DNA from: an uncultured Bacteroidota bacterium
GTDB lineage: Bacteria > Bacteroidota > Ignavibacteria > UBA10030 > UBA6906
Direction of reading: 5' to 3'
Length of the DNA: 64,000 bases
Assembly (NCBI GenBank): GCA_963779225.1
Contig: CAVZWW010000003.1
Span: 1,503,835 to 1,567,834 of the forward strand
Positions 10,054-48,013 of the stretch are shown piece by piece. Position 1 is the first letter of the stretch. Each line of letters starts with the position of its first letter. Under the pieces are notes generated by a model. The model saw only the letters and a list, made by a program, of their open reading frames with translations, was not told where the DNA came from and made no database searches. Both the position numbers and the translations under genes were made by a program.

Positions 10054-10061
10054 GTGTGAAT

Positions 10062-10081
10062 TGATGTTAGCGCTAACATCA
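10062..10081. promoter_or_regulatory. Perfect 20-bp palindrome TGATGTTAGCGCTAACATCA; candidate LacI-family operator (site 1 of 3), 91 bp upstream of galT.
   Basis: The core TGTTAGCGCTAACA fits the generic LacI/CcpA-type operator pattern TGnnAnCGnTnnCA with a central CG. An identical 20-mer occurs at 12636-12655 and the 14-bp core at 56126-56139. Confidence 0.5.
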
Positions 10082-10171
10082 TGCGGGGAAAACATTTGCT
10101 GTCGCCAGGGAGCGCAACAAATTGGGCGCCGACTGCTTAACACTGGAAAGAACAAGGCCCTGCTCGCTTCG

Positions 10172-12516: not shown

Positions 12517-12548
12517 GTGACTTTATAATTGACTTTACCATTGACTTT
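12517..12548. repeat. Three tandem 12-bp direct repeats (GTGACTTTATAA / TTGACTTTACCA / TTGACTTTCTGA) in an AT-rich island.
   Basis: Read directly from the sequence. The helical-turn spacing and the TTGAC cores suggest a promoter or transcription-factor binding array. The repeats lie about 330 bp upstream of the 12880 operon and about 90 bp upstream of operator site 2. Confidence 0.4.
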
Positions 12549-12635
12549 CTGATCAGTAAGTGGTAAAATTTGGCTAATCCTCTATGTATTTCTGAAATTA
12601 CACGCTGGCTCTTGCGGCCCATGTTGTGTGTGGAC

Positions 12636-12655
12636 TGATGTTAGCGCTAACATCA
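12636..12655. promoter_or_regulatory. Second copy of the palindrome TGATGTTAGCGCTAACATCA (LacI-type operator candidate), 225 bp upstream of the 12880 gene.
   Basis: Identical 20-mer to site 1. Both copies are preceded by a GTGTG-containing stretch. Confidence 0.5.
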
Positions 12656-12879
12656 GAAGATGAAATGATGTAACTTCCAGGTAGCGGATCGACTGTGCGG
12701 TGGGTCTCACCGCGATGCGCTCCGGAGTTCAACCACGGACAATTGTCCCTTAGCCCAAGAAAGGAGGTGAGCCGGCACTGACATGTGAACACTCCTGCCG
12801 TTCCACTATTATCGCGGAAAATTCCGCACACGGCAGCGAACGATGTTGGCAGCATGATAACATCTCATGGAGGGCACTA

Positions 12880-15042
12880 ATGAAATCCCGGTTCTCTTTG
12901 TTTGCCATAGTCGCACTGGCGGTGGTCAGTACCGTCGGGCTTCGTGCGCAGGGGCTCGAGCCGATTGGCGGTCCATACACCGTTGACTCGAACACGGTGG
13001 TGCTGCTGCACTTTGACAGCACACTGGTGAATGCCGCTGCAACAGTCGGCAAGACCGCTGCCGCCGCTGTTTCCCACACCACCAACCCGGCCAAGATTTA
13101 CTACATCAACAACACCGGCGTTACCGGTATGGGGAAATGCATCCGTCTGGACAACAGCGCCAGCACTGATTCAACGTACCTCATGGTGCCGGATACCGCG
13201 GCGTTGGATCTGACCGGCAGCTGGACCATTGAAGCCTGGGCGAACATCTTCACGTTTGGAGACAATGCCCAGGACTATCGCTGGGTTCCGCGTGTGTGCA
13301 TGAAACCCGCCGACGTGACGTTCTATGATGGCGCCAACTGGTGGATGGAAATGTGGGGCGACAGTCGTTCGTTCCAAACAGGTTATGTCGCAGAGTCAGG
13401 ATCGTACGTGACGACGTCGTCTCCCGCCAATATGTTCGTTCCGGGAGAATGGGTCCACCTGACGTTTATTCGCGACACCGCGCGTTCGTTTATCGCGGTC
13501 ATGGTTCATGATAAGGACAAAAACCTAAGAGGATTTATCACGCAGGGCTTTACCAAAGGCGATCAGCCACGTACAACGAAGCAGGCGGTGCACATAGGGT
13601 GGGCAGGAGCGGTTGGCATCACCAATGCAAGCAACGATTCATGGCTCGACGGATTTATTGATGAACTCCGCATCAGCAAAGTGGTCCGGAATTTTGCTGG
13701 ACCTCCGGTCATTTCGAACAAGATCATACTTCCAAACCAGCCGTCGACCGCAGGGTCCTATCCCGTCAGCGTCACTGCGTTCCCGCTCAATGCCGGCGGA
13801 AGCATCACGAGCGCAATGCTGATGTACCGCACCGACACCGTGAGTGCATTCAGCAGCGTCACCCTGAGCGCGGGTCCCAACGACACGTTCACCGGCGCCA
13901 TCCCCGGCCAGGCGTTCGGCACGATTGTGCAATACTACTACAAGGTGACGGACAACAACAGCCTGTATTCTCTGTTCCCGTCCAATGCTGAAACGACGAC
14001 CAATCCAACCCGGCTGTCCTTCGGTATCTATCAACCCAATTCGATGACGCTTGATCTGACATTCGAGGAAGGTCCGACCAACCCCCCGATCGACCATTCC
14101 CCGAACAACTGCACGATCGTTACGCGCGTACAGAAGGATTATTCGACGGACGTTCCGACGGGCGGCGGCACCTACTCGTGGCAGTTAAAGACCCACCCGG
14201 GAATCCTTATTGATTCCAACTGGGTTGAGGCTGTTTCGCCCTTCCTCGCGGCGGAAGAGTTCACACTAGACTGCTGGATCAAGGCAGACTCCGCCGACAG
14301 GCATGCAACACGGATCATCATCAACCCGTCTGCAGAGCAGGACTGGAATAACGCCAACTTCGAGCTGAGTTTCCGCAACGGTGCAACCCTCCCCGTCTTC
14401 ACTGCTCGATACTGGAACAATGACGGTTCCGGTGCGCCCACTCTGCAGGACACGCTTGTCGCAGGGACGGCACATGTCGGCAAATGGCGGCATGTCATCA
14501 TCGAGAGGAATAAGACGAGCAGCGAGTTCGCCATGGCAATCAAGGATGAGAACGACGTACTGATGTTCAAGAAGGTCGTCGCCGCGCCAAAACCCCCGCT
14601 GATGGCCGGTGCACCTCTCCGTATCGGACGGTCGTGGTTCGACGCTGCCGATAATTACTATGTCGCTCCCTTCCGCGGAAGAATCGACAACGTCAAGGTG
14701 TACAACTATCCGGCGGCCGGGATTACCACTTCAGTGGATCCTGGGGCCGGCGAAACCACACCGTACACGTTCGATCTGGCTCAGAACTATCCGAACCCGT
14801 TCAACCCGACCACGCGGATTGAGTTTGTGGTGCCGAAGGCGATGACTGCACAGCTCATCGTGTACGACGTGCTCGGCCGCGCGGTGAAGACGCTGTTCAA
14901 CGAAGAGACGCATGCCGGTTCGCACTTCGTTCAATGGGACGGCACGAACCAGGGTGGCCTGGGCGTGGCGAGCGGCGTCTACTTTGCCCGTTTGAGAGCG
15001 GGAGATTTCGAGAAGACGATGAAGATGATGCTCATGCGATGA
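12880..15042 (+). CDS. secreted T9SS cargo protein with two LamG/concanavalin-A-like lectin domains and a C-terminal T9SS sorting domain
   Basis: A signal peptide is present, together with the motifs IDELRISKVVRNF and IDNVKVYNY. The C-terminus ...QNYPNPFNPTTRIEFVVP...SGVYFARLRAGDFEKTMKMMLMR is a canonical type-A T9SS sorting domain. A GGAGGG ribosome-binding site is present. Confidence 0.8.
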   Translation: MKSRFSLFAIVALAVVSTVGLRAQGLEPIGGPYTVDSNTVVLLHFDSTLVNAAATVGKTAAAAVSHTTNPAKIYYINNTGVTGMGKCIRLDNSASTDSTYLMVPDTAALDLTGSWTIEAWANIFTFGDNAQDYRWVPRVCMKPADVTFYDGANWWMEMWGDSRSFQTGYVAESGSYVTTSSPANMFVPGEWVHLTFIRDTARSFIAVMVHDKDKNLRGFITQGFTKGDQPRTTKQAVHIGWAGAVGITNASNDSWLDGFIDELRISKVVRNFAGPPVISNKIILPNQPSTAGSYPVSVTAFPLNAGGSITSAMLMYRTDTVSAFSSVTLSAGPNDTFTGAIPGQAFGTIVQYYYKVTDNNSLYSLFPSNAETTTNPTRLSFGIYQPNSMTLDLTFEEGPTNPPIDHSPNNCTIVTRVQKDYSTDVPTGGGTYSWQLKTHPGILIDSNWVEAVSPFLAAEEFTLDCWIKADSADRHATRIIINPSAEQDWNNANFELSFRNGATLPVFTARYWNNDGSGAPTLQDTLVAGTAHVGKWRHVIIERNKTSSEFAMAIKDENDVLMFKKVVAAPKPPLMAGAPLRIGRSWFDAADNYYVAPFRGRIDNVKVYNYPAAGITTSVDPGAGETTPYTFDLAQNYPNPFNPTTRIEFVVPKAMTAQLIVYDVLGRAVKTLFNEETHAGSHFVQWDGTNQGGLGVASGVYFARLRAGDFEKTMKMMLMR

Positions 15043-15073
15043 GCAGGGAATTCGTGTTTTGCTAAAGAATTAA

Positions 15074-15130
15074 GCCCGCAGGGCAGGGGCCCCCGGTTGC
15101 ATAGAGCAGCCGGCGGGCCCTGCCGGCGGG
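15074..15130 (+). terminator. GC-rich imperfect hairpin after the 12880 gene (possible terminator or attenuator)
   Basis: GCCCGCAGGGCAGGGGCCC ... GGGCCCTGCCGGCGGG. The arms pair imperfectly and no T-tract follows. Confidence 0.25.
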
Positions 15131-15155
15131 TGTACATTGACCGATCGGGGCGCGT

Positions 15156-15806
15156 ATGCCGAAGAGGTACAGTCTATTCGTTCCCGCCATCATCCTTGCG
15201 GGAGTTCTCCTGTCCTGCAGAACAAGTGTCGAACCCTCTCCTGAGCCCGGCATCATCAGGGTGACGCTGAAGGGTGCGGACTGGGACACGAGCATCGTCA
15301 TCCAGAATGACACGTCGAAGTTTTCACGATGGGACAAGTTTGACGTGATGGTCTCACAGGGCAGATTGTACCAGGGCGAAATCTATGCGTACATCTACAA
15401 CAATCCGAGCAGTGAACGGAAGGCGAGCGACACGGCGAATATTCTCGGGCGGGAATGGCTGGACGGAACACCGATTACCACGGGCGATACGGCCACCATC
15501 ACACCGGCGAACAGCCGGTTCCGGAAGTACCTCGTGTTTGAATCCTATGCGCCTCCCGGTACGTATGACAGGATTTCTCTGTCGCTGGTTGCCTATGAGA
15601 TGGAGATCTTCATCCCCAAACACTATCTCAATCCGGTCATGCTCCCGCCCGACGTGGCGCCCGGCATAGATTTTCCCGGTACGTATACAATCACCGAAAA
15701 CGGTGTGACCGAAGTCGAGCTCGAGCTGGCTCCATACCAATCCCTGGTGCGGTATCAGGATATGTATTACTTTGAACGCAAAATCGCTGTTGTCGATGTG
15801 CACTAG
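15156..15806 (+). CDS. hypothetical lipoprotein
   Basis: The signal peptide carries a Cys (LLSC). No motif was recognised. Confidence 0.55.
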   Translation: MPKRYSLFVPAIILAGVLLSCRTSVEPSPEPGIIRVTLKGADWDTSIVIQNDTSKFSRWDKFDVMVSQGRLYQGEIYAYIYNNPSSERKASDTANILGREWLDGTPITTGDTATITPANSRFRKYLVFESYAPPGTYDRISLSLVAYEMEIFIPKHYLNPVMLPPDVAPGIDFPGTYTITENGVTEVELELAPYQSLVRYQDMYYFERKIAVVDVH

Positions 15807-15881
15807 CATGACATCCACAGGGCGGGCAGATGCGGTTCTGCACCCCTGTCTGACCGGAGTATCGATGACTACAGGTGTCTT

Positions 15882-17366
15882 ATGAAAAGACGGTTCACGG
15901 TTCCGGTGCTCTTGTTTACGCTGCTGCTTGCTGTTGTGCACATTTCCTGCGAACGGCCAACAGATCCGCCAAACCCCAACGGCCCGCCTCAAACGAAGCT
16001 GGCAAATGTCCCCAAGGAGTTTGACACCGTCTTTGCCCTGGTGAACATGAGCTGGAGCGGCGGAGACAATGACGGGTTTATCACGAACTACCAGTACCGG
16101 TACTTCACCTACCATCTTATGCCCGGGTCGAGCACGGAATGGGTGCTCTTCGATTCCACGGCCTGGAAGGACACCGTCGGGACAGGAGTGCTGCTTGCCT
16201 TCAATTCCACCGAAGCCCTCAACAAGCAACTTTTCTTTGTGCGTGCGGTGGATAATGACGGCAACCCTGATCCAACGCCGGCGGTGAAGGTTCTCTACAC
16301 GGTGAGAACGGTCTCGCCGATCACGAGGATCCTATCCCCGACGAACAATGGCAGCGTTCTCGTGAGTACGACCGTCACCGACTGGTGGAATGGCGTGCTG
16401 GTTATTTTCAAGGCCACGGATCCCACGGGTCTTGCCCAGATTGTGGAATATGCATGGGCGGTGGACGACGGCCCGTGGACCTGGCAGAAGGATACGTCGG
16501 TGTTCATCACTCCGGAGAAATTCGCGGCGCCACTCAACGGCATACACGAAGTGAAGGTGATTTCGCGCAATAACACCAACCTGATAGATCCCGTGGGCGA
16601 TTCGATCAGTATTAATCTGATTATTCCTCCGTTCAACAAGGGCATCCTGATCATCGACGAAACTGATGAATTCAACAATCCCTTTATCACCCTGGGGATC
16701 CCCGATTCGGTGACCGATGCATTCTACGCCCAGGTGTTCCCCGGCTCCGCGAGCTGGGATTTCAAAACTCAGGGGATGCCTCCCCGCGAAGTCATGGCGC
16801 AGTACAGGCTTGTGGTCTGGCATGCCGATGATGTCCCCACCAGCCGCCCCCACAAAATTTCCGATCCGGCGAACATCGAAGTGTTCACCGACTACCTGAA
16901 GGTGGGGGGAAAATTTCTGATGAGCGGCTGGCGGATCCTGAAATCATTCGCCTACTACAACAACTTCCCCTTTACATTCTCTTCGGGATCGTTCGTGTAC
17001 GATTATCTGCATATCCGCATGGTCACCGAGACAGATATTCTGGGCGACATGTCGGGGGGGAAGGGAAAGACCGGTGTGTTCAGCAGCTTCAAGGTGGATT
17101 CCACGCGCCTGGCGTTTTTCCCGTACAACGGCCGGTTGTCGCAGGTGAATCTGATTATCACCATGGCGGGCTTTACGGATATCCTCTATTCCTATCAAAA
17201 CGACGACAGCAGTCCCAATGTCACCTACCGGGGACGTGCGGTTGCCCTGCGGTACTACGGCACGGTTTACGATGCCGTGGTACTCGGTTTTCCGATGTAT
17301 TTCATAGATGAGAACGATGCAAAGGTCATGGCAAAAGAAATTGTCCGGAGTCTGCATGTCGAGTGA
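15882..17366 (+). CDS. hypothetical secreted/lipoprotein (494 aa)
   Basis: The signal peptide ends in ISC. The protein is predicted beta-rich and no motif was recognised. It overlaps the next gene by 11 nt. Confidence 0.6.
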   Translation: MKRRFTVPVLLFTLLLAVVHISCERPTDPPNPNGPPQTKLANVPKEFDTVFALVNMSWSGGDNDGFITNYQYRYFTYHLMPGSSTEWVLFDSTAWKDTVGTGVLLAFNSTEALNKQLFFVRAVDNDGNPDPTPAVKVLYTVRTVSPITRILSPTNNGSVLVSTTVTDWWNGVLVIFKATDPTGLAQIVEYAWAVDDGPWTWQKDTSVFITPEKFAAPLNGIHEVKVISRNNTNLIDPVGDSISINLIIPPFNKGILIIDETDEFNNPFITLGIPDSVTDAFYAQVFPGSASWDFKTQGMPPREVMAQYRLVVWHADDVPTSRPHKISDPANIEVFTDYLKVGGKFLMSGWRILKSFAYYNNFPFTFSSGSFVYDYLHIRMVTETDILGDMSGGKGKTGVFSSFKVDSTRLAFFPYNGRLSQVNLIITMAGFTDILYSYQNDDSSPNVTYRGRAVALRYYGTVYDAVVLGFPMYFIDENDAKVMAKEIVRSLHVE

Positions 17367-20169
17367 GCATGCTGCACGATTGAGGCGTAGATCGCGAAGA
17401 CGCCTGCCGGCCCGCTGTGGTGCGGCCTTCCTGGCGTTTCTGCTCTGTCTCACGGCAGGGATGGCCCAGAATACCGGGAAGATCGCAGGGACGGTGAAAG
17501 ACAAAGCCAATGGAGAGCCTCTCGTCGGTGCAAACGTCGCCATTAAAGGGACGATCCTCGGTGCATCAACCGACATCGACGGGCACTTCTTCATCCTGCG
17601 TGTTCCTCCCGGCGTACACGATGTGCTGGTCACAAGCGTTGGCTATCAGGGCATAACCGTGAAGGGTGTGCGTGTGCAGGTGGATCTCACCGCGGAGGTC
17701 AGCATCAAGCTCGAGCAGACGAGCATCGAGGTTGAGGGAGTGACCGTTACCGCCGAACAGAAGATGGTGCAAAAAGATGTCACGTCGACACGCCGGACGG
17801 TGTCGCAGAGCACTATCCGTGCAACACCGGGTCTTGACGCGACGACGGACATCTTCAAATTGCAGGGCGGAACGGTACTCACCGCAGCCCCTCCGACACT
17901 CCGCCTTGCCGACGGAACACAGCTGCAGGTTCGTGACGAGAGCCTCCAGGATGTGCACATACGCGGCGGACGCGGCGGCGAAATCCTGTACATGGTGGAC
18001 GGTATGCCGATGACCCATCCGATCTACGGTGGACGGAGCGTCATGGATCTGAACCTGGTTGACGTGGAAAGCGTGGAGCTCCTGACCGGTGCTTTCAATG
18101 CCGAGTACGGCCAGGCGCAATCCGGTGTGGTCAATATTATCACAAGAAGCGGCGGCGAACAGTTCCACGGCGGCGTGGAGTACAAGACCGACCGTGCAGG
18201 CGTGTTTGGCGAATCGTATTTCACGGACTATACATCCCTGTATATCGGCGGGCCTGAACCGCTCACACAGGTTCTCCTCCCTGCCCTCGGTCTCGACCCC
18301 GGCCGCGGATTGACCTTCTTTCTTTCGGGCAATACAACGCTGACCAATACGCCCTATGACAACCACCGCACCCGTGGCGACCTTGATCTGCTTGCCTGGA
18401 CGTTTCCCGAACGGCAGGACAATGCGGTGAACCTGAACGCCAAACTGAACTGGGATATCAGCGGGGAACAAAAACTCGCCTTGAGTTACCATGGGTCCCG
18501 GAAACAGTGGAGCAGCTTCGACTGGTTGTGGATCAACTCGCCTGACAACACCGCCGACTACAAACGTACCAACTATGCATTGAACGCCTCGTTCAATCAG
18601 GTCCTCTCAAGAGCAACCTACTTCACATTGATGGCGGGATACCTTGACGTCGTGTACAAAGGTTCACTGAGAGGCCAAGCCCCCCCCGATTTTTGGCGGA
18701 CGGATAGTACCGGCCGGCTTATTCCCTTGTACAATTCCCCCACGATTGATCCCAGTACCGGCTTCTATGATGAGAGCGGTGTAGAGTCCATTTGGCGGGA
18801 TGACCACACCAAAACGTTTACATTTAAAGGCGATATGACGTCGCAAGTGCATCCGGCGCACATGATCAAGACCGGCCTGGAATTCTCCTATAACACACTC
18901 AGCTATATCGACATACAGGACGGCGGAACAAAACTGTCGAAATACGGCCAGGGAATCGATTCCGTGCCGCCACCCGGACCGTACCCGTTGTTCGGCCAGA
19001 ACCGCTGGGTTTTCGACGTCAAACCGACGATCGCTTCGGCGTATGTCCAGGACAAATTTGAACTGGAGTACCTTGTCCTCAACGCAGGTGTGCGCATCGA
19101 CTACTTCAACCTCGGGAAAACCGTGATGGAGAGCGGGTGGCAGACGGCGTGGGAGGCGGCGACTGGACTGCCGGCAGACTGGAAGCAACAGATCTTCAAA
19201 GTGAGTCCCCGTTTTGGGATCTCCTTCCCGATCTCCGAGAATACCGTCGTCTTCTTCTCTTACGGACACTTCAACCAGCTGCCTGAATTGCAGTATTACT
19301 ACCGTGATCCGTACAGCAGCACCTTTACAGGAAATCCGGGATTGGATTATGAGCAGACCATCCTGTATGAGTTTGGATTTACGCATCAGCTGACGGATTA
19401 CTGGGCCTTCGATATCAAGAGCTACGGAAAGGACATTTCCAAACAGATCGGAACCACGCGCGTGTACGGAACGGAGGGAACGCCGGTTGACCTGTACGAC
19501 AACAAGGGATACGGCCGTGCCCGGGGTCTCGAATTCGAGATAGTGAAAAATCCTTCGGACTTCATCGCCGGGCGGGCCACCTACACGATCCAATGGGCGA
19601 ACGGCTACTCATCGTCGGCGTTCGACGACTACGTACGATCGACCAACAACTTCCCTTATCCGATCCGCGAACGGGCGCTGGAATGGGATACACGTCACCA
19701 GGTGATCGTGCAGGCAAGCCTGGCGGCCGGGCTGCGTCAGTATCCGAATGTCTTTGGTTTTGAATTACCTGATGACTGGAACCTGACCATGCTCTACCGG
19801 TTCTCCACGGGGACGCCGTACACACCGGGCGAGGCCACGCTGAACCCGGTCGAACTGCAGAAGCAGGAAAACACAAGGTACGGGCCGTATACCAGCAGCG
19901 CTGATCTGAAATTCGAAAAGGGTTTCACTCTGGCCGGCGTTCGTCTGGCATTCACGGTGGACGTGTTCAACCTTTTTGACCAGCGGAACGTCCAGACCGT
20001 GCGGTCGGATATCGGGTTTAACCAGTGGACCGGAGAACCATACCGGTACGGAGACATCCAGGAGCCGCAGGATAACTTCTATGACTACTACACAATGGTC
20101 AGCATACGCGATCCCCGTGTGTTTTCCACCGGGCGGACAACAAAACTTGGTGTGAGGGTGGATTTCTAA
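17356..20169 (+). CDS. TonB-dependent outer-membrane receptor with an N-terminal carboxypeptidase-regulatory-like domain
   Basis: The signal peptide is followed by TGKIAGTVKDKANGEPLVGANVAIKG (a CarbopepD_reg-like domain), a plug domain and a long barrel that ends in the aromatic ...KLGVRVDF. No SusD-like gene follows. Confidence 0.85.
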   Translation: MSSEHAARLRRRSRRRLPARCGAAFLAFLLCLTAGMAQNTGKIAGTVKDKANGEPLVGANVAIKGTILGASTDIDGHFFILRVPPGVHDVLVTSVGYQGITVKGVRVQVDLTAEVSIKLEQTSIEVEGVTVTAEQKMVQKDVTSTRRTVSQSTIRATPGLDATTDIFKLQGGTVLTAAPPTLRLADGTQLQVRDESLQDVHIRGGRGGEILYMVDGMPMTHPIYGGRSVMDLNLVDVESVELLTGAFNAEYGQAQSGVVNIITRSGGEQFHGGVEYKTDRAGVFGESYFTDYTSLYIGGPEPLTQVLLPALGLDPGRGLTFFLSGNTTLTNTPYDNHRTRGDLDLLAWTFPERQDNAVNLNAKLNWDISGEQKLALSYHGSRKQWSSFDWLWINSPDNTADYKRTNYALNASFNQVLSRATYFTLMAGYLDVVYKGSLRGQAPPDFWRTDSTGRLIPLYNSPTIDPSTGFYDESGVESIWRDDHTKTFTFKGDMTSQVHPAHMIKTGLEFSYNTLSYIDIQDGGTKLSKYGQGIDSVPPPGPYPLFGQNRWVFDVKPTIASAYVQDKFELEYLVLNAGVRIDYFNLGKTVMESGWQTAWEAATGLPADWKQQIFKVSPRFGISFPISENTVVFFSYGHFNQLPELQYYYRDPYSSTFTGNPGLDYEQTILYEFGFTHQLTDYWAFDIKSYGKDISKQIGTTRVYGTEGTPVDLYDNKGYGRARGLEFEIVKNPSDFIAGRATYTIQWANGYSSSAFDDYVRSTNNFPYPIRERALEWDTRHQVIVQASLAAGLRQYPNVFGFELPDDWNLTMLYRFSTGTPYTPGEATLNPVELQKQENTRYGPYTSSADLKFEKGFTLAGVRLAFTVDVFNLFDQRNVQTVRSDIGFNQWTGEPYRYGDIQEPQDNFYDYYTMVSIRDPRVFSTGRTTKLGVRVDF

Positions 20170-20186
20170 GCAGAAAGAGAACTCTT

Positions 20187-21956
20187 ATGCGTGTGTGGAA
20201 GAGAGTCGTGTTGCTGTCCTGTTCCGTCCAGCTGCTTGCCGCCGGCATGGCGAGCGCACAATCGACGAAACTGGATTGGGCGATGACCACCACAGGCAAG
20301 ATGCGGCAGGTGATCACCAACATGGGGACATTCGACAAAGGACGCACGAATTATCCCGGCCTCATAAACGCCGAATTCCCGGCCGGGAGCGACGAGGAAC
20401 ATCTCTTCCAGGGGGGCATCTGGGTCGGCGGCATCACGCCGACGGGCGACACTCTGGTCTCTCAGTCGGAAGCGCACTTCACCGCGCATGAATTCTATCC
20501 ATCTGCCAACGCTTGGGACACCATATGGACGGGGTCGAAGGGGGACACGCTGGACATCCCCTACTGGCCCGGCTATGAATGCATTTCCGACCAGGATTTC
20601 GTCTGCCGCTATAGTGACTACAACCTGTTGAATATCGACAATCATACACCGTTGTATCTTGACGTCGTGCAAACGACATACTCGTGGAGCTCGGCGGGGT
20701 TGGACGAATTTCTGCTGTATAAGTACTACATCGTCCCCAAGAAGTTCCCCATCAAGAACATGTATATCGGGTTCTGGATGCACAGCGCGATCGGGAATGT
20801 CGGGGCGACCGACAACTTCATCGACGAATTTACGCGCTACTTTCCGCAGTACCACCTGGCGATGGCTGAGGACTCCAAGGGCGGGAGCGACGGCCAGGCG
20901 ATCAGCCCCATAGGGTTCAGCGTCCTCGCTCCCACGACAAATGTCGCCAGCTGGAGCTTTAACTATTACGAACATGAGGAACTTCCGAGTAGGGATCCGG
21001 CGTGCTACACTGTCATGGCGAGCGGCAACATCATGCCGGACCGGCTTGAACGCGCACGTGCCCATATCATCTATGCGTTTGGTCCATTTCAGGCCGAAGT
21101 CGGCGACACGATCGTCGTCGAGATGGGTGAGATTTTCGGTCTTGGTGTAGCCGGTGCGTTGAACAACGCCGAATACTTGCAGTTCCTCAAGAGCAAGAAT
21201 TTCCGCGTTCCTGCACCACCCCCGAAGCCCGCACTTCGTGTGACCACCAGCAGTCACGAGGTGAGCCTGGACTGGACCCCGCTACCCGGCGGGGTAAATC
21301 CGGAAACGTACACAGACGCGAACCGCGGGGATACAGTAAAATACCCCTTCGAAGGGTATCGTCTGTACCGGAGCACCAAGGGGAGCGACGGCCCATGGAC
21401 CCTCCTTGCGGAGTACGACATTCTCAACGACATCGGCTACAACACCGGTCTCCAGTATACGTATAGGGATGCGGGTTTGCTGAACAACGTGGAGTACTAC
21501 TATACGCTGACGTCGTTTTCACAACCCGACAAGGTGATCAAATTCGCCTCGCAGGAGACCGGACTCTCTGCGAACGCAAAAGTCATCGTCCCGGGAACAG
21601 TCCCTCCTCAAACGGTGGGGGAGGTGGCGGCTGTGCCCAATCCTTACCGGGGGGATCTCCCTTACAGCTCGTACAATCCCCCCTGGGAACGGCCGCAGGG
21701 AAACCGTCCGTGGTGGATGGAACAGGACCGTCGTATACAATTCATCAATCTGCCGGCCCAGTGCCAGATCAAGATCTTCACGCTCGCCGGAGATCTCGTA
21801 AACACGCTCGAGCATGCAGATCCGAACAAAGGATATGAAGACTGGAATCTGACCTCCTCGATCGGTCAGGCGATTGCCAGCGGCATCTACCTTTTTACGG
21901 TTGAAGACCGCGTAAATGGGAATGTGCAGGTGGGGAAATTCGTCATCATAAAGTAG
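20187..21956 (+). CDS. secreted protein with a fibronectin-III-like domain and a variant T9SS C-terminal sorting domain
   Basis: The signal peptide ends in AAGMASAQ. An FN3-like segment (EVSLDWTPLP...YRLYRS) is present. The C-terminal approximately 80 aa (...IQFINLPAQCQIKIFTLAGDLV...ASGIYLFTV...GKFVIIK) is T9SS-sorting-domain-like. Confidence 0.65.
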   Translation: MRVWKRVVLLSCSVQLLAAGMASAQSTKLDWAMTTTGKMRQVITNMGTFDKGRTNYPGLINAEFPAGSDEEHLFQGGIWVGGITPTGDTLVSQSEAHFTAHEFYPSANAWDTIWTGSKGDTLDIPYWPGYECISDQDFVCRYSDYNLLNIDNHTPLYLDVVQTTYSWSSAGLDEFLLYKYYIVPKKFPIKNMYIGFWMHSAIGNVGATDNFIDEFTRYFPQYHLAMAEDSKGGSDGQAISPIGFSVLAPTTNVASWSFNYYEHEELPSRDPACYTVMASGNIMPDRLERARAHIIYAFGPFQAEVGDTIVVEMGEIFGLGVAGALNNAEYLQFLKSKNFRVPAPPPKPALRVTTSSHEVSLDWTPLPGGVNPETYTDANRGDTVKYPFEGYRLYRSTKGSDGPWTLLAEYDILNDIGYNTGLQYTYRDAGLLNNVEYYYTLTSFSQPDKVIKFASQETGLSANAKVIVPGTVPPQTVGEVAAVPNPYRGDLPYSSYNPPWERPQGNRPWWMEQDRRIQFINLPAQCQIKIFTLAGDLVNTLEHADPNKGYEDWNLTSSIGQAIASGIYLFTVEDRVNGNVQVGKFVIIK

Positions 21957-21988
21957 TCCAGCCTTTGCGCACTTGAAGGTGAAGAGCA

Positions 21989-22909
21989 ATGAAACGGACG
22001 TGGATAGCTCTGCTGGTGCTGGTGCCCGGACTTCTGTTCGGGCAGTATAACCGTCCAGGCAGCACAGACGCGCAATTCCTGAAAATCGGGGTCAGCGCGC
22101 GCGGAGCGGGGATGAGCGATGCCTACATCGCCGTCGTGGACGGGGCGGATGCCACGTACTACAATCCGGCAGCCTTGCCCTGGCTTAAGAAAACCGATGT
22201 GGTCTTCAACCATACGTCCTGGTTTGCAGGGATCAACCATGAATTTGTCGCCGCTGCCTACAACTTCGAGGATCTCGGCGCATTCGGCATGTCCGTGACT
22301 GCACTCAGTACCGACGAAATGAAAGTCCGTACTCCCCTCCAGCCGGAAGGTACCGGCGAGACCTTTTACTCGGCGAACTACCGGTTCGGACTGAGCTATG
22401 CCCGCTTCCTGACCGACCGGGTAACCTTCGGCCTGACGGTGAGCTATATCAACATGAAGCTCTACCAGGAATTTTCAGCTCATGCGTTTTCCCTCAACAT
22501 CGCGGTGATGTATCTCTCCGACTTCCGGGGCTTCCGGTTCGCCCTCGAGATAGCGGATTTCGGGTCAAGCATTCAATATGTCAACGAGTCGTACCCTCTC
22601 CCGACAAATTTCAAGTTCGGCCTGGGGATGAATGCCATCGATGGGGACAATCAGAAACTGCTGGTGAGTTTCTCGGCCATCAAACCGAACGAGGGCGAAC
22701 CACAAGCGCAGGCGGGCATGGAATGGAATTTCATGAACACGTTCTTCGTCCGCGGAGGATACAGATTCAATTACTCGGCAGCCACCTATTCTCTCGGCGG
22801 CGGTGTTGCCTTCGATCTCGCCGGGATTGGCATGCGGGCGGACTATGCATTCAATAATTACACCACTCTTGGAGGCAGTCACCGGTTCGGCCTCGGTCTG
22901 TCGTTCTGA
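21989..22909 (+). CDS. PorV/PorQ-family outer-membrane beta-barrel protein
   Basis: A signal peptide is followed by GVSARGAGMSDAYIAVVDGADATYYNPAAL, which matches the conserved PorV/PorQ N-terminal motif. The sequence has alternating beta-strand character and ends ...GLSF. Confidence 0.6.
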   Translation: MKRTWIALLVLVPGLLFGQYNRPGSTDAQFLKIGVSARGAGMSDAYIAVVDGADATYYNPAALPWLKKTDVVFNHTSWFAGINHEFVAAAYNFEDLGAFGMSVTALSTDEMKVRTPLQPEGTGETFYSANYRFGLSYARFLTDRVTFGLTVSYINMKLYQEFSAHAFSLNIAVMYLSDFRGFRFALEIADFGSSIQYVNESYPLPTNFKFGLGMNAIDGDNQKLLVSFSAIKPNEGEPQAQAGMEWNFMNTFFVRGGYRFNYSAATYSLGGGVAFDLAGIGMRADYAFNNYTTLGGSHRFGLGLSF

Positions 22910-22955
22910 TGGTGCGCGTCCTCGGCCGCCTCATATAACTACGGTGCGGCCCCGC

Positions 22956-25316
22956 ATGCATACTCCTCGTACGTATCACCTCTCCCCCACCCGGGCTGTG
23001 CGATTGCTGTTGTGCAGTCGGCTTTCCTGCGTGGCGGTCTTCATGGTCATGCTTCTTCTGGCTTCCCTCTGTCCCTCCCAGGTGACGTTCGCCCGGCGGG
23101 ACACCACATATACCCTTGCTCTCCCCGATGCGTTCCCGGCCGACAACTACACGCCGCACGGGTACATCGACAATCCGTTTCACAGCATGGTCAACAACCG
23201 GAGCGGTGTGATCCGTTCATATCCTCCCCTGGGATTCGGCTGGTGGAGGGCGGATGCCAATCCTGGAGCATACGGGGAGGGGAGCCGGGATCATGTGAAT
23301 TATCTCTCCATCCTGGAACTGGGGGTTTCCGTCGGGGACAGTGTATTTCTGACAACCGGGGATTTTGAACGCCACGGCGTGGAACTCGCCTCCGCGTACC
23401 ATACAAAACATCTGGTCAGTTACGACTGGCAAAGCGGGCCCGTCACCGTTCACCTGCGCTTCTTCCTGCCCTTCGAGAATTCCCTTGTGTGCCAGGTGGA
23501 GCTGCTCAATGCAGGGGGAACCGGTGTGCAGGTGCGGCTGGATGCGGCGGCGATCACGAAGATCGGGTCTGAAAAGTGGTGGGGAAGCGACGGGATAACG
23601 GCGCGCTACCTGCCGGACGACGGAGTCAGTGTGAGCAAAATCTGGGCCTATGGCGACGTCTTCGCTCTGGGGGCGTCACACGCACCCATTGCCCACATGA
23701 GCACGGTGAAGGAGGAAGAGTGGGAGCAATGGATCCGCCGGAAGGACACCGTCTCCGTCTCCTCCATGGCGGTGATGGGGCCAGGTCCGTGCTGGACCGC
23801 CCACGCGTACCGGGTACGTGTTCCCGCGAACGGCCGCACTACGGCACTGGTCTCTCTCAGCCGCGGAAAAAACGAGCACGCTGTCCGGGCTGAACTCGCA
23901 CGCGCGCTTCGGGACGCGATTCCGATGGCACAGGGTCAACTGGCGAAGGACAGGGTGTTCTGGTCGTTCTGTCCTACGCTTTCCGGCGATTGGCCTCCGG
24001 CATGGAGAAGGGGATGGGTGTACGACTTCGAAACGCTCCGCATGAATGTCCGGCCCCCGGTTGGCATCTTTACACACCCCTGGGACGGTATGCAGGTACA
24101 TTCGCCGCGCGTGGTTCTCGGTGAAACCTGCCTGGATATGATGGCCCTCTCATATGCCGATCCTGTTCTCGCACGTGAAGTGGTGGAGGGGACATTCGCC
24201 GATGCGCTCGCGCCGAATATTCCCTGCTCCCGTGAAGATGGGAGCGTCAACATGATCTCCTCCGACGGCTCGGAATGCGGCACCGCGCCGATGTGGGGAT
24301 TTCCGTTTCGCGTCATCCGGTCGCTCTTTCTCGCTTCGGGAGACTCCGCCTGGATCGTGCGGCTGTATCCACACCTGAAAGCCTATGCTCTCTGGTGGCT
24401 GAAGAACAGAACCGATACCGAAGGATGGCTGCACTGTAACAACAGCTGGGAATCCGGTCAGGACGGGTCAAGAAGGTTTCTGGTCGCCGAAAAGAACGAA
24501 GGCGCCGTCGCGGATTTTGTCCGCACGGTGGACGTGGAGGCGAGCATGGCGGAGGCGCTTGGCATACTCGGCGAGTTTGCCCGCTTTGTTCCGGGTCCGG
24601 ACGAAACGGCGATGTGGAAGGAGCTTGCCGAACGGAGAATACGGAACACGCAATCGATGTTTTTCGAAGGAGGGTTCCGTGACGTTGACGGTCGGTCAGG
24701 GACCCCGATTATCCTCAACGGTCACAACGATGTAATGATGCTGGCCCCGCTGGTCTGCGGTGTCGCGACCCCCGACCAGCAGCGGGCCGTGAAACCGATG
24801 TTCCGGTATTTTCTGGACAACCCGCGCTCCGCCCTGGAGTGGCCGCCGCTCCTCTATACGTATGCGGAGGCCGCCTGGAACGCCGGAGAACGAGAGGCCG
24901 CATCGACAGCGGTTGCTGCTACGGCCGCGCGGGTCTACAGGCGTATTGATGCACGCACAGCTACCGGCGGTAGAGACCGGGATCAATTCTCGTACAGGGT
25001 TCCCGGTGTGGCAAACGAGTTCTGGCCACTGGGCAATACTCCGCCCGGCGGAGAAAATTACGGATGGGGCGCTACCCTCCCCGCACACATCATCCGGAAC
25101 ATCGTGGGATTCAGGGAACAGGAAGGCAGCGGCAATAGTGCTGATGCATTCGTCATCGCCCCCTGCCTTTCTCCAGATCTTTTCCACCCGGAAAGACCTA
25201 CGGCATCAGGAACCTTCACTACCGCGATCTCACGTTTGATCTTGATGTCACATGCCGCGAATCCTCCGGCCTGCAGACGGTTTTCCGCTATCGTTCACCG
25301 CAACCCGTTGCTGTGA
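22956..25316 (+). CDS. secreted (alpha/alpha)6-barrel glycoside hydrolase, GH63/GH37-like (clan GH-G); paralog 1
   Basis: WESGQDGSRRF matches the GH63/GH37 ESG-x-D-x-S-xRW catalytic-region motif. It is paralogous to the proteins at 25464-28193 and 33013-35160 (shared NRTDTEGWLHC versus NRDTDGDGLCEW). The start was moved from 22803 to the ATG at 22956 so that it follows the PorV-like stop. The C-terminal approximately 60 aa extend beyond the paralogs and may hide a frameshift. Confidence 0.6.
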   Translation: MHTPRTYHLSPTRAVRLLLCSRLSCVAVFMVMLLLASLCPSQVTFARRDTTYTLALPDAFPADNYTPHGYIDNPFHSMVNNRSGVIRSYPPLGFGWWRADANPGAYGEGSRDHVNYLSILELGVSVGDSVFLTTGDFERHGVELASAYHTKHLVSYDWQSGPVTVHLRFFLPFENSLVCQVELLNAGGTGVQVRLDAAAITKIGSEKWWGSDGITARYLPDDGVSVSKIWAYGDVFALGASHAPIAHMSTVKEEEWEQWIRRKDTVSVSSMAVMGPGPCWTAHAYRVRVPANGRTTALVSLSRGKNEHAVRAELARALRDAIPMAQGQLAKDRVFWSFCPTLSGDWPPAWRRGWVYDFETLRMNVRPPVGIFTHPWDGMQVHSPRVVLGETCLDMMALSYADPVLAREVVEGTFADALAPNIPCSREDGSVNMISSDGSECGTAPMWGFPFRVIRSLFLASGDSAWIVRLYPHLKAYALWWLKNRTDTEGWLHCNNSWESGQDGSRRFLVAEKNEGAVADFVRTVDVEASMAEALGILGEFARFVPGPDETAMWKELAERRIRNTQSMFFEGGFRDVDGRSGTPIILNGHNDVMMLAPLVCGVATPDQQRAVKPMFRYFLDNPRSALEWPPLLYTYAEAAWNAGEREAASTAVAATAARVYRRIDARTATGGRDRDQFSYRVPGVANEFWPLGNTPPGGENYGWGATLPAHIIRNIVGFREQEGSGNSADAFVIAPCLSPDLFHPERPTASGTFTTAISRLILMSHAANPPACRRFSAIVHRNPLL

Positions 25317-25463
25317 CGGCTCTGGAACAGGACGGGAAAATCCGGGTCGCTGCAACTGCGGCAAGCCAGGCGGGTGTCCTGACCCTCCGGGGACGAAATG
25401 CGACCGTTTACCGCTTCCGGCTTTCTTCCCTGCACAGTGCTCCTTGAGAAAGGTGACAGAACC

Positions 25464-28193
25464 GTGAATGTGTTCAAACATCTGCTGCTCTCTTGCCTTC
25501 TGCCCGGTTCACTGGCCGCGCAGGTGATGCAGCCCTATCTTTCGAACCTTCGGGCAACGAAGGACAGTCCGCTCTTTGCGACGTATGCGGCCGCAATGGA
25601 ACGTTCGGAGTTCACGCTGGACGAAGGATATCACCTCGTGTTCTATGATTCAACCCGCGGGATCGATCTCGTCACCGACAATGCCGGTGTCTGGTCGGTC
25701 GGCTTCAGGAAAGGCTCCCGTTTTGTGTATGCCCTGCGCGACATGGCAAAACCGCCCGTGCTGACCGTCTCCTACCCTGACATGGTCAAATATGCGTACG
25801 CACCGTTCGATAGTGTCCGGGTGGACATCACGTTTGTCGTTCACAGCTCCCGGATGGCCGTGCAGGAAGTGGCCGTCACCAACGAGGGGCGTGAGAGAAC
25901 CTCCATCGACGTCATTCCGTTCCTGCAGAATCCTGAACGTGCATTCAACGACGTATCGTTTCTTCACTCCCGAAAAGCGATCGCCTTCACGCACGAAGAG
26001 TTCCCCGACAGCTGGGTCCGGGAGCACGGTGTGCCGTTCGTGGACAGGGTGCACGACCTGTTTGTCTTTTCGCGCCCGCCCGCCCGGCTCTCCAGCTTCA
26101 GAAGCTTTCGCTGGAGCGGCGTTGAAATTCCCCCGGCGATAGAAATGAACAGGAAGCCGCTCTTTACGGTGTGGGGTCGGATGACGGACCGGAACGGAGA
26201 ACGGTGTCTCCATCGTACGCCGCCTCCCCGCATGCTGGTGGTGCTGAACGGAGACCGGAGGCGGATCCTGATCGAAAATGCACCGCGCTGGGGGAATACG
26301 GAATCGGGCATCACTGCTTCTGCCCTGTACGGCGTCGAACTGGGGAACTTCGGAGTGATTCGTTACGGCGACACGGCAACGGTCATGCTGTCATGCGGCG
26401 CAACCGGCGACGGCGCGACGGTGCGGGCTGCGATCGGCGACACTTCCAGTGTGCGGGACCAGCGCATTGATGTCCGGCTTGGATCCGTTGGCGGCCTGCG
26501 CGCACCGGAGAACGTGCGGCGCGATATCTGGGGGAGCGGCACGGAGCTGCGCCTCTACTGGAAACCGACAGGACCGGCTGTCCGGTACGATGTGTACCGG
26601 CGCGACTACGGTGCCGGTGGCGTGTATGAGCGCGTGGCGGCAGGTATTGAACAGACATTCTTTACAGACAAAAACATCCCGGATGACAGGATTTACGGGT
26701 ACGTAGTGACTGCCGTCGACGGCCGCGGCAGGATGAGTATGCATTCGAACGAAGTAAACAATATCGAGGGAAGCGATTTCCTCACCGATGTGAAATACCC
26801 CGGACAGGTGAAGGGAGATGCGCGCGATCTTTCGCGTGTGGTGTCGGCGTGGGAGACGCTGGAAATCGCTCCGGGTGCGACAGAGCGTTTGCGCGTGGTG
26901 CGCGCCATGCACCGGCCAGATGAGGACCGGGCAAAGGTTCTCGCTGCCGCAGAGCGCCTTATGGACGAAGATCTGGACGGGTACCTGAAGGACAATGAAC
27001 TTCTGTTCAGCCGTGTTCCTCCGCCACGATTCACCGATCCCGATAAGACCATGCTGTACTGGAGCGCGTATTCCCTGATGCGTCAGGTCATGCTGCCTCC
27101 GGAAGGGAAGTGCGGATTCAATTATTACGTGTTTTCACGTGAGCCACAATGGGGATGGGGACACGGGGGGCAGGTCTTCCACGAAAGCCTGACGATGCTC
27201 GCGTATGCCCTCATGGACCCGATGAGTGCCATGAATTCCCAACGGGTCTTCCGCGAACGGCAACAGAAAGGGGGATACATCAACTATCGAACCGGTCCCT
27301 ATCTGGATGAGACCATTCCCACCGGCGGGCAGATGACCAGTTCTGCGCCCTGGTATGCGTGGCAGAACTGGGAAGTCTACAGGCTGACGAAGGACAAGAC
27401 GTTTCTGGAACAGATGTATCAATCCAGCGCGGGGTTCTACAGGTACTTCGTCAAAAACCGGGATACCGATGGAGACGGTCTCTGCGAGTGGGGCGGGGAA
27501 GCGGTGCTGGAATCTGTCCGCGATGCCCGCGTGGCCGTCTGGGATGAAGTCGGATGGCCGAGTGAGTTCGAGGCGGTCGATGCCAATAGCATGCTGGTTA
27601 TGGAAGCGAAAGCGCTGTCTGCCATGGCCGCGGAGTTGGGACGTTCCGGTGAAGCCAGCGATTGGCTGAAGGACGCCGACGAGCGCTCGATGAAGATCAA
27701 CAAAACCTTCTGGGACGAGGAAACCGGATTCTACTACCAGGTGGACAAGAAGGACCATGACTTCACATTCAAAAAGCCGGACGATTTGAAGCGGGAAGAG
27801 ATCATCGGTTTTCTTCCTCTCTGGGCGGGCATCCCGGATTCAGCCCGTGCGCGCCGGCTGGTGGAGAAACTCACCGATCCGCAGAAATTCTGGCGGCCCT
27901 ATGGCGTGCCGACGCTCGCGGCGGACGATCCGTATTACAATCCCAAAGGGTACTGGAACGGGCCGGTCTGGGTACAGTGGGACTATCTCATCGAGCGGGG
28001 TCTGCTATCCTACGGCTACAAGAAGGAAGCACGCGAGCTGGTGGACCGCGTGGCCGCAGGCATGATCGCGCAGCTCAAGAAAGACCATAATTTCTGGGAG
28101 TTCTACAGCCCGGACGACCCATGGGCAGGCTATCACAAAACGTACATCTGGGCAGGAATCATCACCCGGATGATGCATGATATGCTCGAATGA
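25464..28193 (+). CDS. secreted (alpha/alpha)6-barrel GH63/GH37-like glycoside hydrolase; paralog 2 (about 910 aa)
   Basis: Motifs include NYYVFSREPQWGWGHGGQVFHESL, NRDTDGDGLCEWGG and a C-terminal FWRPYGVPTLAADDPYYNPKGYWNGPVWVQWDYL. The start is assigned to GTG 25464 to give a signal peptide (track ATG 25398). Confidence 0.65.
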   Translation: MNVFKHLLLSCLLPGSLAAQVMQPYLSNLRATKDSPLFATYAAAMERSEFTLDEGYHLVFYDSTRGIDLVTDNAGVWSVGFRKGSRFVYALRDMAKPPVLTVSYPDMVKYAYAPFDSVRVDITFVVHSSRMAVQEVAVTNEGRERTSIDVIPFLQNPERAFNDVSFLHSRKAIAFTHEEFPDSWVREHGVPFVDRVHDLFVFSRPPARLSSFRSFRWSGVEIPPAIEMNRKPLFTVWGRMTDRNGERCLHRTPPPRMLVVLNGDRRRILIENAPRWGNTESGITASALYGVELGNFGVIRYGDTATVMLSCGATGDGATVRAAIGDTSSVRDQRIDVRLGSVGGLRAPENVRRDIWGSGTELRLYWKPTGPAVRYDVYRRDYGAGGVYERVAAGIEQTFFTDKNIPDDRIYGYVVTAVDGRGRMSMHSNEVNNIEGSDFLTDVKYPGQVKGDARDLSRVVSAWETLEIAPGATERLRVVRAMHRPDEDRAKVLAAAERLMDEDLDGYLKDNELLFSRVPPPRFTDPDKTMLYWSAYSLMRQVMLPPEGKCGFNYYVFSREPQWGWGHGGQVFHESLTMLAYALMDPMSAMNSQRVFRERQQKGGYINYRTGPYLDETIPTGGQMTSSAPWYAWQNWEVYRLTKDKTFLEQMYQSSAGFYRYFVKNRDTDGDGLCEWGGEAVLESVRDARVAVWDEVGWPSEFEAVDANSMLVMEAKALSAMAAELGRSGEASDWLKDADERSMKINKTFWDEETGFYYQVDKKDHDFTFKKPDDLKREEIIGFLPLWAGIPDSARARRLVEKLTDPQKFWRPYGVPTLAADDPYYNPKGYWNGPVWVQWDYLIERGLLSYGYKKEARELVDRVAAGMIAQLKKDHNFWEFYSPDDPWAGYHKTYIWAGIITRMMHDMLE

Positions 28194-28204
28194 ATGGAGC
28201 TCCT

Positions 28205-29725: not shown

Positions 29726-29735
29726 CTGGGTTCCC

Positions 29736-31013: not shown

Positions 31014-31036
31014 CTTGTCTGCAGAAGGAGAGATGC

Positions 31037-32998: not shown

Positions 32999-33012
32999 CC
33001 GGGAGTTTCACC

Positions 33013-35160: not shown

Positions 35161-35190
35161 ATGTATCTGCCAACAGGAGAGGAAATCAAC

Positions 35191-47815: not shown

Positions 47816-48013
47816 GGTTGCCGGATCTGTCTCCCGGTGCGAACAGCGCGGTGTCCCGGCAAAGGCACAGGACGAGGCCAACAAGGATTCTCCGGGCTCG
47901 TGGTGTGACGGCATGGGCGATCCGCTCCCCGGCGCGCGCCTCTACGGCCGCGGAGGCAAGGAAGGGCAGGGGCGATGAGAAGTGCCGGCGTGGAGTGATC
48001 CCCGGGCGATGTG

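Follow-up and report, generated by a model that had tools for sequence, protein, structure and literature searches.

A candidate LacI-regulated glycan uptake module of Ignavibacteria in which a PorV/PorQ-family barrel may tether a secreted protein beside a TonB-dependent transporter

The six-gene module and its putative operator

The subject of this study is a module of six genes for outer-membrane and secreted proteins in the genome of an uncultured Bacteroidota bacterium of the class Ignavibacteria (GTDB lineage UBA10030; UBA6906). Our analysis of this genome covers a stretch of 64 kb, hereafter called the window (assembly GCA_963779225.1, contig CAVZWW010000003.1, positions 1,503,835 to 1,567,834), and all coordinates count from its first letter. 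The genes lie head-to-tail on the plus strand from 12880 to 22909 with gaps of 113, 75, -11, 17, and 32 bp and encode a LamG-domain protein, two putative lipoproteins (lipoA and lipoB), a TonB-dependent transporter (hereafter the receptor), a secreted 589-aa protein of an unnamed family (P589), and a small beta-barrel of the PorV/PorQ family (Table 1). An initial annotation of this DNA had described a module of five genes starting at 15156; all five open reading frames (ORFs) are present on the plus strand at the positions given, and their identification as two lipoproteins, a receptor, a secreted protein with the C-terminal domain (CTD) of type IX secretion system (T9SS) cargo, and a PorV/PorQ barrel was borne out, but the conserved unit comprises six genes and opens with the LamG gene at 12880. 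The receptor start at 17356 is also the one chosen in an independent gene call. Four module proteins (encoded from 12880, 17356, 20187, and 21989) have Gln directly after the predicted signal peptidase I cleavage site, shown here by a slash (RA/QG, MA/QN, SA/QS, and FG/QY, respectively), which fits the "Q-rule" described for Bacteroidetes, a rule that is said not to be valid for the whole FCB group (PMC5837995).

Table 1. Features of the module, domains of P589, and regulatory elements in the window.
Feature	Position	Strand	Description
LamG protein	12880-15042	+	720 aa; opens the conserved module; two LamG/ConA-like domains; T9SS type A CTD
lipoA	15156-15806	+	216 aa; signal peptide and Cys
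lipoB	15882-17366	+	494 aa; signal peptide and Cys
TonB-dependent transporter	17356-20169	+	937 aa; CarbopepD_reg_2, Plug, TonB_dep_Rec_b-barrel
P589	20187-21956	+	589 aa; secreted; unnamed family
P589 signal peptide	residues 1-24	+	cleavage before invariant Q25
P589 beta-supersandwich N-domain	residues 25-345 (20259-21221)	+	from AlphaFold2 and Foldseek
P589 FN3-like domain	residues 346-467 (21222-21587)	+	from AlphaFold2 and Foldseek
P589 extended CTD	residues 468-589 (21588-21953)	+	VPNPYRGD linker and beta-sandwich; from AlphaFold2 and profiles
PorV/PorQ-family beta-barrel	21989-22909	+	306 aa; NF033709
LacI-family operator	12636-12657	none	perfect 22-bp palindrome CTGATGTTAGCGCTAACATCAG, core TGTTAGCGCTAACA
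LacI-type operator, copy 2	10061-10082	none	upstream of likely galT start
LacI-type operator, copy 3	56124-56141	none	directly upstream of minus-strand SSF-GH38-GH3 genes
LacI-family regulator	40659-41768	+	Pfam LacI HTH and Peripla_BP_3

The receptor displays the hallmarks of TonB-dependent transporters, i.e., a plug (Pfam Plug, 36.9 bits versus a cutoff of 23.9), a barrel (TonB_dep_Rec_b-barrel, 57.5 bits versus 27), a conserved TonB-box-like motif (VEGVTVTAEQ at residue 126), and a conserved C-terminal aromatic residue (F/W), together with a CarbopepD_reg_2 domain (59.6 bits). Against the SusC/RagA model TIGR04056, it reaches 76.6 bits compared to a cutoff of 368.25 in a match confined to N-terminal residues 58-285, and no SusC chains are found among its sequence matches in the PDB. 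Judged by these models, the receptor is not of the SusC/RagA type, so that a SusD partner is not expected and the lack of one is no anomaly. The initial annotation had set the module, as SusD-less, against the canonical polysaccharide utilization loci (PULs) of Bacteroidota; its statement that no SusD-like gene is present stands, given that no SusD-family Pfam match was found in the window ORFs scanned, but the premise that one ought to be there fails with the SusC/RagA model.

The LamG protein (Laminin_G_3, 71 bits) ends in a canonical T9SS type A CTD (TIGR04183, 35.1 bits versus a cutoff of 23). Neither lipoA nor lipoB has a Pfam or NCBIfam match; both have a signal peptide ending in a conserved Cys, as is the mark of lipoproteins, and this residue is kept in nearly all orthologues with a readable N-terminus (C23 of lipoB is invariant in an alignment of 61 sequences). 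The orthologues share the motifs C-x-TGVExSP(D/E)PG in lipoA and C-ERxTxPxxPN in lipoB. In an AlphaFold2 model of lipoB (predicted local distance difference test [pLDDT] score of 92.7), residues ~37-247 form two Ig/FN3/PKD-like domains and the C-terminal residues ~253-494 an alpha/beta domain without an assigned fold. Foldseek returned tandem FN3 matches for the lipoB model, and the PKD model weakly matches 20 of 61 lipoB relatives. A weak match of 9/61 relatives to DUF4960 (best E 0.025), a flavodoxin-like levan-binding domain (PMC10076258), is a lead only, and a PDB sequence search with the lipoB profile retrieved nothing meaningful. Based on its predicted structure, we regard lipoB as a candidate surface glycan-binding protein. 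The idea that lipoA or lipoB might be a cryptic SusD was considered and rejected: neither matches any family, the lipoB fold is beta plus alpha/beta and not helical, and lipoA has only 216 aa. The same results refute the view that the locus is an ordinary SusC/SusD PUL with an overlooked SusD; the SusC-like N-terminal carboxypeptidase-regulatory domain of the receptor would fit such a PUL, but the SusC model fails, no ORF matches a SusD family, and the lipoB model does not have the helical SusD fold.

Upstream of the LamG gene, a perfect palindrome follows a sigma-70-like promoter match (12541-12569, a match to the consensus only). The 14-bp core TGTTAGCGCTAACA of this putative LacI target, a palindrome of the LacI/CcpA type, occurs in 3 perfect copies in the window (10065-10078, 12639-12652, and 56126-56139), compared to 0.08 expected. 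An inverted-repeat scan of intergenic regions found nothing, since the arms of the operator abut, and the palindrome was read directly from the sequence. Of 44 related loci (described below), 14 have this operator or a similar one no more than 500 nt before the LamG gene, compared to a background rate of 0.02 per 530 nt. Loci of Melioribacter and of several further Ignavibacteria have the identical operator in front of the LamG gene, while one Balneolaceae locus has a variant there (TGTTATCGATAACA). Going by the LacI type of the palindrome, the LacI-family protein encoded at 40659-41768 is the probable repressor at all three operators, which as predicted sites define a small regulon of galT and epimerase genes, the LamG-led outer-membrane module, and the SSF-GH38-GH3 genes. 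Since an operator stands before the LamG gene, we place the start of the module there and count it into this sugar-responsive regulon. Directly after the third operator and on the strand opposite to the SSF gene, we also noticed genes for a tripartite efflux pump (HlyD-type membrane-fusion protein, ABC ATPase, and MacB/FtsX permease; 56358-60003).

P589 and its neighbouring barrel

All relatives of P589 are annotated as "hypothetical"; they are 45-93% identical across phyla. The protein has no Pfam match and, by profile sequence search, no relative in the PDB, while its AlphaFold2 model (pLDDT 87.7) resolves into the three domains listed in Table 1 behind a signal peptide whose cleavage would expose Q25, a residue that is invariant in 60 P589 sequences. 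Foldseek aligned the N-domain with the non-catalytic N-terminal supersandwich of the glycoside hydrolase (GH) families GH94, GH149, and GH116, of dextran dextrinase, and of cyclic-glucan synthase (E 3.5e-6 to 1e-4) and the middle part with FN3 arrays (E ~1e-5). The Pfam fn3 model itself has no match in P589 of the window and matches 5/60 relatives (best E 8.4e-4).

Of the 321 positions of the N-domain, 51 are invariant, many of them Asp, Glu, His, Trp, or Tyr. This degree of conservation is more than is usual for a binding protein and brings up the alternative that P589 is a surface-tethered enzyme of a new family that cleaves or modifies glycans and, in a role like that of SusG, makes the oligosaccharides for the receptor. 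Several glycoside hydrolase and lyase families indeed have beta-sandwich folds, and no obvious surface endo-acting enzyme is encoded among the six module genes. We nevertheless consider an enzyme quite improbable, because the fold matches are the non-catalytic N-terminal domains of the GH94, GH149, and GH116 enzymes and not their catalytic domains, because no Pfam family or PDB chain matches the sequence, and because the N-domain is far less well preserved than the CTD in divergent variants of P589 (see below).

The C-terminal region of P589 is predicted to fold into a beta-sandwich (residues 516-589), and the match of the protein to the PorZ model (E 2e-6) is confined to its last 73 residues and to the CTD part of that model. 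This PorZ-CTD part of NF052228, which matches 60/60 P589 relatives, and the PorU CTD, which matches 39/60, are the best HMM (hidden Markov model) matches of the family. The general CTD models TIGR04183 and PF18962 have no match at E<=0.01 in P589 of the window; TIGR04183 reaches 47 of 60 relatives at E<=1 (best E 4.4e-4), and the type B model CHU_C weakly matches 35 of 60 (best E 5.2e-5). In a profile-profile comparison, hhalign aligned the P589 CTD with the type A CTD profile of the LamG protein over 72 columns with a probability of 96.9% and an E-value of 1.8e-10, compared to 4e-52 between two ordinary CTDs. By these profiles, the CTD of P589 is a divergent homologue of the type A CTDs of neighbouring genes. 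The FN3 domain and the T9SS sorting domain that the initial annotation had assigned to P589 are indicated by structure prediction and profile-profile comparison and not by curated HMM thresholds. Besides P589, the window encodes at least three proteins with a CTD (at 12880, 35161, and 60113), and SprA has been reported in FCB phyla other than Chlorobiota (PMC12611786).

PorZ and PorU are the two T9SS proteins known to keep their CTD uncleaved and bound to PorQ and PorV, respectively (PMC10202324). Because the P589 CTD is nearest to the CTDs of these two proteins, it may likewise be retained. Conservation offers weak support at most: the median identity of orthologues to P589 of the window rises from 51% in the N-domain over 57% in the FN3 domain and 68% in the linker to 75% in the CTD, and tandem P589 paralogues that share one barrel gene are 49% identical in the N-domain, 76% in the linker, and 77% in the CTD. 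As a proof of retention, this pattern is rejected, since a control with the LamG protein gave a similar picture (CTD 56%, body 40%), while a second control, the T9SS Big_2 protein of the locus, showed no difference (44% each).

Residues 483-515 of P589 include the VPNPYRGD motif, which resembles the NYPNPFNP motif found immediately ahead of ordinary CTDs of this genome (e.g., in the LamG protein). In P589, a conserved insertion of ~25 residues (...PPWEKP..R..WMEQDRR) parts the motif from the first CTD strand. This insertion may be the mark of a subclass of retained CTDs.

The barrel encoded downstream of P589 matches the PorV/PorQ family model NF033709 over its full length with 188.7 bits (cutoff 90). 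It misses the cutoffs of both equivalogs with 68.6 bits each (PorV NF033710, cutoff 250; PorQ NF033711, cutoff 220), and the barrels of relatives score slightly higher on the PorQ model (77-115 bits) than on the PorV model. Its sole PDB sequence match is F. johnsoniae PorV (6h3i_F, E 1.7e-5), and the PorP/SprF model TIGR03519 gives 24.8 bits, missing a cutoff of 90.55. PorV itself has the FadL fold (PMC12578637), which might suggest a FadL-type channel unrelated to P589; this reading is refuted by a Toluene_X/FadL (PF03349) score of 14.9 bits over 73 residues only (cutoff 29.7), and the earlier assignment of the barrel as PorV/PorQ-like rather than FadL/OmpP1-type is confirmed. We presume that the barrel is the cognate anchor for the P589 CTD. 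A role as general PorV next to a PorU was also considered, given that a KSB1 locus (L002) has a gene with Peptidase_C25 domain and CTD 3 kb downstream, and rejected since the PorU match of this protein is confined to the CTD (22 bits versus a cutoff of 420).

Recurrence of the arrangement in related genomes

A scan of species-representative genomes revealed 446 places that encode P589 relatives, and synteny was counted over 77 non-redundant loci with the testable loci as denominators. The genes for the LamG protein, lipoA, lipoB, and the receptor follow each other in this order in 44 of 46 loci, P589 has the receptor gene directly upstream in 59/65, and a barrel gene follows within 700 bp of the last P589 copy in 57/65, so that the arrangement of receptor, P589, and barrel is far beyond chance. 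A single copy of P589 is found in 32 loci, two tandem copies in 40, and three in 5, always with a single barrel gene. By median identity to the proteins of the window in 42 complete loci, the barrel (61%), the receptor (57%), and P589 (56%) stand out as a slowly evolving core, compared to lipoB (50%), the LamG protein (40%), and lipoA (34%). The carriers are labelled by the submitters of the metagenome-assembled genomes (MAGs) as Ignavibacteriota (including Melioribacter), Calditrichota, KSB1, Fidelibacterota/Marinimicrobia, Zhuqueibacterota, and Rhodothermales, and the genomes sampled usually have a single locus of this kind. The module is accompanied in these loci by galK, GH63-like enzymes, and further T9SS proteins. 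One of the loci is found in a MAG assigned to the cultured species Melioribacter roseus.

Beyond these close relatives, the P589 profile retrieved 473 cluster representatives (at 50% identity) at E<=1e-30 and 2942 at E<=1e-10, including many distant P589-like proteins of 700-1300 aa whose similarity to P589 is mainly in the linker and CTD and most of which have no Pfam domain. We sampled seven divergent variants of 766-1311 aa (L082, L083, L085, L086, L087, L088, and L089). A barrel of the PorV/PorQ family is encoded immediately downstream in 6/7 (NF033709 at 128-217 bits; 25-39% identical to the barrel of the window), and a homologous receptor of the CarboxypepD_reg type is encoded upstream in all five with readable upstream DNA. 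The surroundings of these triads differ. A beta-helix protein is encoded in the context of L083, and L089 (1-4645 and 4946-12357) adjoins an Opp-type oligopeptide ABC transporter. For L087, whose named relatives come from Fermentibacteria, Eisenbacteria, and Marinimicrobia, no enzyme genes were found among those called on the stretch examined. L085 (1006-6839) has genes for ExbB, two ExbD proteins, and TonB between those for the receptor and the P589-like protein, an order that is suggestive of import by the receptor in dependence on TonB and ExbBD. The gene contexts of L089 and L085 also hint that some triads might import peptides or other non-glycan substrates. The core idea of the initial annotation, that a secreted CTD-bearing protein and a PorV-like barrel work together with the receptor, is strengthened by the recurrence of the triad with very different P589-like proteins and in varied genomic surroundings.

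Gene order by itself would also arise if the barrel were only a cargo-specific secretion adaptor that draws P589 from the T9SS translocon, in the manner of PorP/SprF for type B CTD cargo, with P589 released or attached by other means and adjacency reflecting co-expression instead of a complex. Genes for type B CTD cargo are usually clustered with cognate PorP/SprF genes (PMC10202324), and the weak matches of P589 relatives to CHU_C and of the barrel to TIGR03519 point in the same direction, as do P589 homologues of Balneolaceae that lack an adjacent receptor and barrel (see below). Still, the receptor is directly upstream in most of the related loci (59/65) and in all five readable divergent variants, including L087 with no enzyme genes among those called, and receptor, P589, and barrel evolve at the same slow rate; we hold this alternative to be unlikely.

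A more radical proposal would reverse the direction of transport. In analogy to Oar-type proteins of Myxococcus, which are reported to export a protease, the receptor-like barrel could export or assemble the P589-like protein and the PorV-like barrel could take over its CTD, together forming a mini secretion unit that is independent of the T9SS. The receptor does belong to a CarboxypepD_reg-containing, non-SusC class, relatives match OMP_b-brl_4, the L087 triad stands without catabolic genes, and the ExbB-ExbD-TonB genes of L085 are located directly before the gene of the P589-like protein. However, a plugged 22-strand barrel has no obvious passage for a folded protein of 600-1300 aa, the operon of the window has a LacI operator of the sugar type and genes of catabolism and sugar transport around it, and ordinary T9SS CTDs on proteins of neighbouring genes imply that a T9SS is present. 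Altogether, we view export by the receptor as very improbable.

Proposed model, substrate, and comparison with known systems

We propose that the locus encodes a LacI-regulated glycan uptake module in which P589 is fastened beside the receptor through an uncleaved CTD that the PorV/PorQ-family barrel holds, similar to the pairing of PorZ and PorQ, and would give this reading a probability of roughly 0.55. The operon would begin at the LamG gene and span all six genes. Glycan would be bound at the cell surface by the lectin-like LamG protein and probably lipoB, and the receptor would import the oligosaccharide with energy provided by TonB. P589, for which a small PorV-like barrel of its own is the probable anchor at the cell surface, would keep its CTD uncleaved and docked on this barrel encoded immediately downstream, so that its N-domain of a carbohydrate-binding type would be positioned beside the transporter on an FN3 spacer. 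Outside the Bacteroidia, transporter, P589-like protein, and PorV/PorQ-like barrel are a widely recurring unit, in which the N-terminal domain would differ with the substrate. From sequence and structure prediction, we infer its surface location, the retention of the CTD, the contact with the transporter, the dependence on the T9SS, and the nature of the substrate. That P589 specifically replaces SusD in glycan capture, as the initial annotation had suggested, would take this inference one step further, and the LamG protein and lipoB are equally good candidates for glycan binding.

Several observations weigh against this model. The Foldseek matches of P589 have modest TM-scores of 0.28-0.34 (normalised to the whole query), and the invariant acidic and aromatic residues of the N-domain would fit an enzyme as well. 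P589 falls below the curated cutoffs of TIGR04183 (23 bits) and PF18962 (27 bits), and the conservation of its CTD is partly unspecific, as the LamG protein shows. The divergent variant L086 stands alone, and in two Balneolaceae loci, P589 homologues are found without a receptor or barrel within 10 kb; with these exceptions, the partnership of receptor, P589, and barrel is not obligatory. In both Balneolaceae loci (L075, 1762-14993; L079, 7490-14888), which have no lipoprotein gene within 10 kb either, the genes flanking the P589 homologue encode a LamG protein, GH63-like enzymes with T9SS CTDs of their own, and a 939-aa T9SS protein. These loci look like a secreted-enzyme version of the same pathway.

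A wider version of the model, which we advance tentatively and hold to be somewhat less probable than not, regards transporter, P589-like protein, and barrel as a stable outer-membrane complex and as a second way, independent of SusD, to capture substrates for TonB-dependent import across the FCB superphylum. Here, the P589-like protein would serve as a lid or binding protein that is delivered by the T9SS and tethered non-covalently by a specialised, uncleaved CTD, and the barrel would pack against the transporter. Swaps of the N-terminal domain would retarget the unit, to glycans in the window and possibly to peptides next to the Opp transporter.

The module is embedded in a carbohydrate locus of ~45 kb that brings together glycoside hydrolases and a regulator as is typical of SusC/SusD PULs. 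It encodes galT, an aldose epimerase, five MGH1/GH63-like enzymes, GH172/DUF2961, GH31, GH3, and GH38 enzymes, a PfkB kinase, and RbsD/FucU besides an FGE-like protein, the T9SS Big_2 protein, an SSF transporter, and the LacI regulator. From these annotations, the GH63/YgjK-like, GH31, and GH38 enzymes and the Leloir genes suggest an alpha-glucoside, galactose, or mannose-containing glycan as the substrate, while GH172, PfkB, and the DUF4960 lead hint at fructans. The set of hydrolases at 22803-40655 and 45007-54333 is unusual in its composition, with the five MGH1/GH63-like enzymes next to GH172/DUF2961, GH31, GH38, and GH3. Two members of the locus, the FGE-sulfatase-like protein and a 511-aa protein without family (28190-29725), travel together with the module in other phyla, and two URO-D-like genes are found within the locus (42501 and 43837). 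A plus-strand ORF of 1867 aa (4341-9944) shows an aminotransferase class I/II fold at residues 456-767 only and no Pfam match in its other ~1500 residues.

Surface-partnered TonB-dependent uptake is known mainly from the SusCD systems of Bacteroidia, and PorV barrels are known mainly as shuttles or anchors of the T9SS; the module described here joins both. It suggests how non-SusC receptors acquire surface partners in the many FCB lineages outside the Bacteroidia, among them Ignavibacteriota, Calditrichota, KSB1, Fidelibacterota/Marinimicrobia, Fermentibacteria, and Eisenbacteria, which are abundant in soils, sediments, and the ocean. Three protein families annotated as "hypothetical" would gain a testable role, and the P589 CTD points to a distinct retained subclass with the signature VPNPYR ... 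RRIxFINLP ... GKFVIIK. With Melioribacter roseus in culture, the model is open to experiments. The initial annotation had called this architecture not well described, and no account of the module was found in open-access papers and on bioRxiv, and the genome papers of Melioribacter and Caldithrix do not mention it.

Carbohydrate or vitamin uptake by TonB-dependent transporters other than SusC is known from the CUT (carbohydrate utilization) loci of Proteobacteria and from BtuB-BtuG pairs, sometimes with a surface-exposed capping protein. Where present, these partners are lipoproteins, and we know of none that uses a T9SS CTD and a dedicated barrel. Compared to SusC/SusD PULs, the module shares a TonB-dependent transporter with an N-terminal carboxypeptidase-regulatory-like domain, a conserved gene for a surface partner immediately downstream of the transporter gene, and a locus that also encodes a regulator, numerous glycoside hydrolases, and additional glycan-binding proteins of the surface. 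Unlike in these PULs, the transporter fails the SusC/RagA model and has no SusD; its partner is a CTD protein secreted in the Sec/T9SS manner with a small barrel of its own and not a lipoprotein; and we usually found one locus per sampled genome instead of dozens.

Type B CTD systems with PorP/SprF barrels such as SprB-SprF resemble the module in that the cargo gene adjoins the gene of a dedicated PorV-like barrel for which anchoring of uncleaved cargo has been proposed. The region needed in type B cargo is also larger than the ~80-aa CTD, and in P589 a conserved linker of ~45 aa precedes the CTD. However, the P589 CTD is nearer to type A, the barrel is outside of the PorP/SprF family, and coupling to a TonB-dependent transporter has not been described for type B systems. 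A different parallel is BamG-BamH, in which a 14-stranded FadL/PorV-like barrel packs onto a large barrel and holds a surface protein with its extracellular loops (PMC12578637). In this case, the protein held (BamH) is a lipoprotein, BamA takes the place of the transporter, and the complex serves to insert proteins and not to take up nutrients; matches of the barrels tested to the BamG model were negligible.

The pairs PorZ-PorQ and PorU-PorV share with our model that a PorV-family barrel holds an uncleaved CTD at the cell surface, as is proposed here for P589. The CTDs of PorZ and PorU are those to which the P589 CTD is most similar, and the barrel of the module is slightly nearer to PorQ than to PorV. 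P589 differs by having neither the beta-propeller of PorZ nor the peptidase domain of PorU, and the barrel, which is shorter than PorQ and PorV (306 aa), belongs to neither equivalog. Finally, the genes of P589 and its barrel are part of a sugar-regulated transporter operon and are not associated with the secretion machinery.

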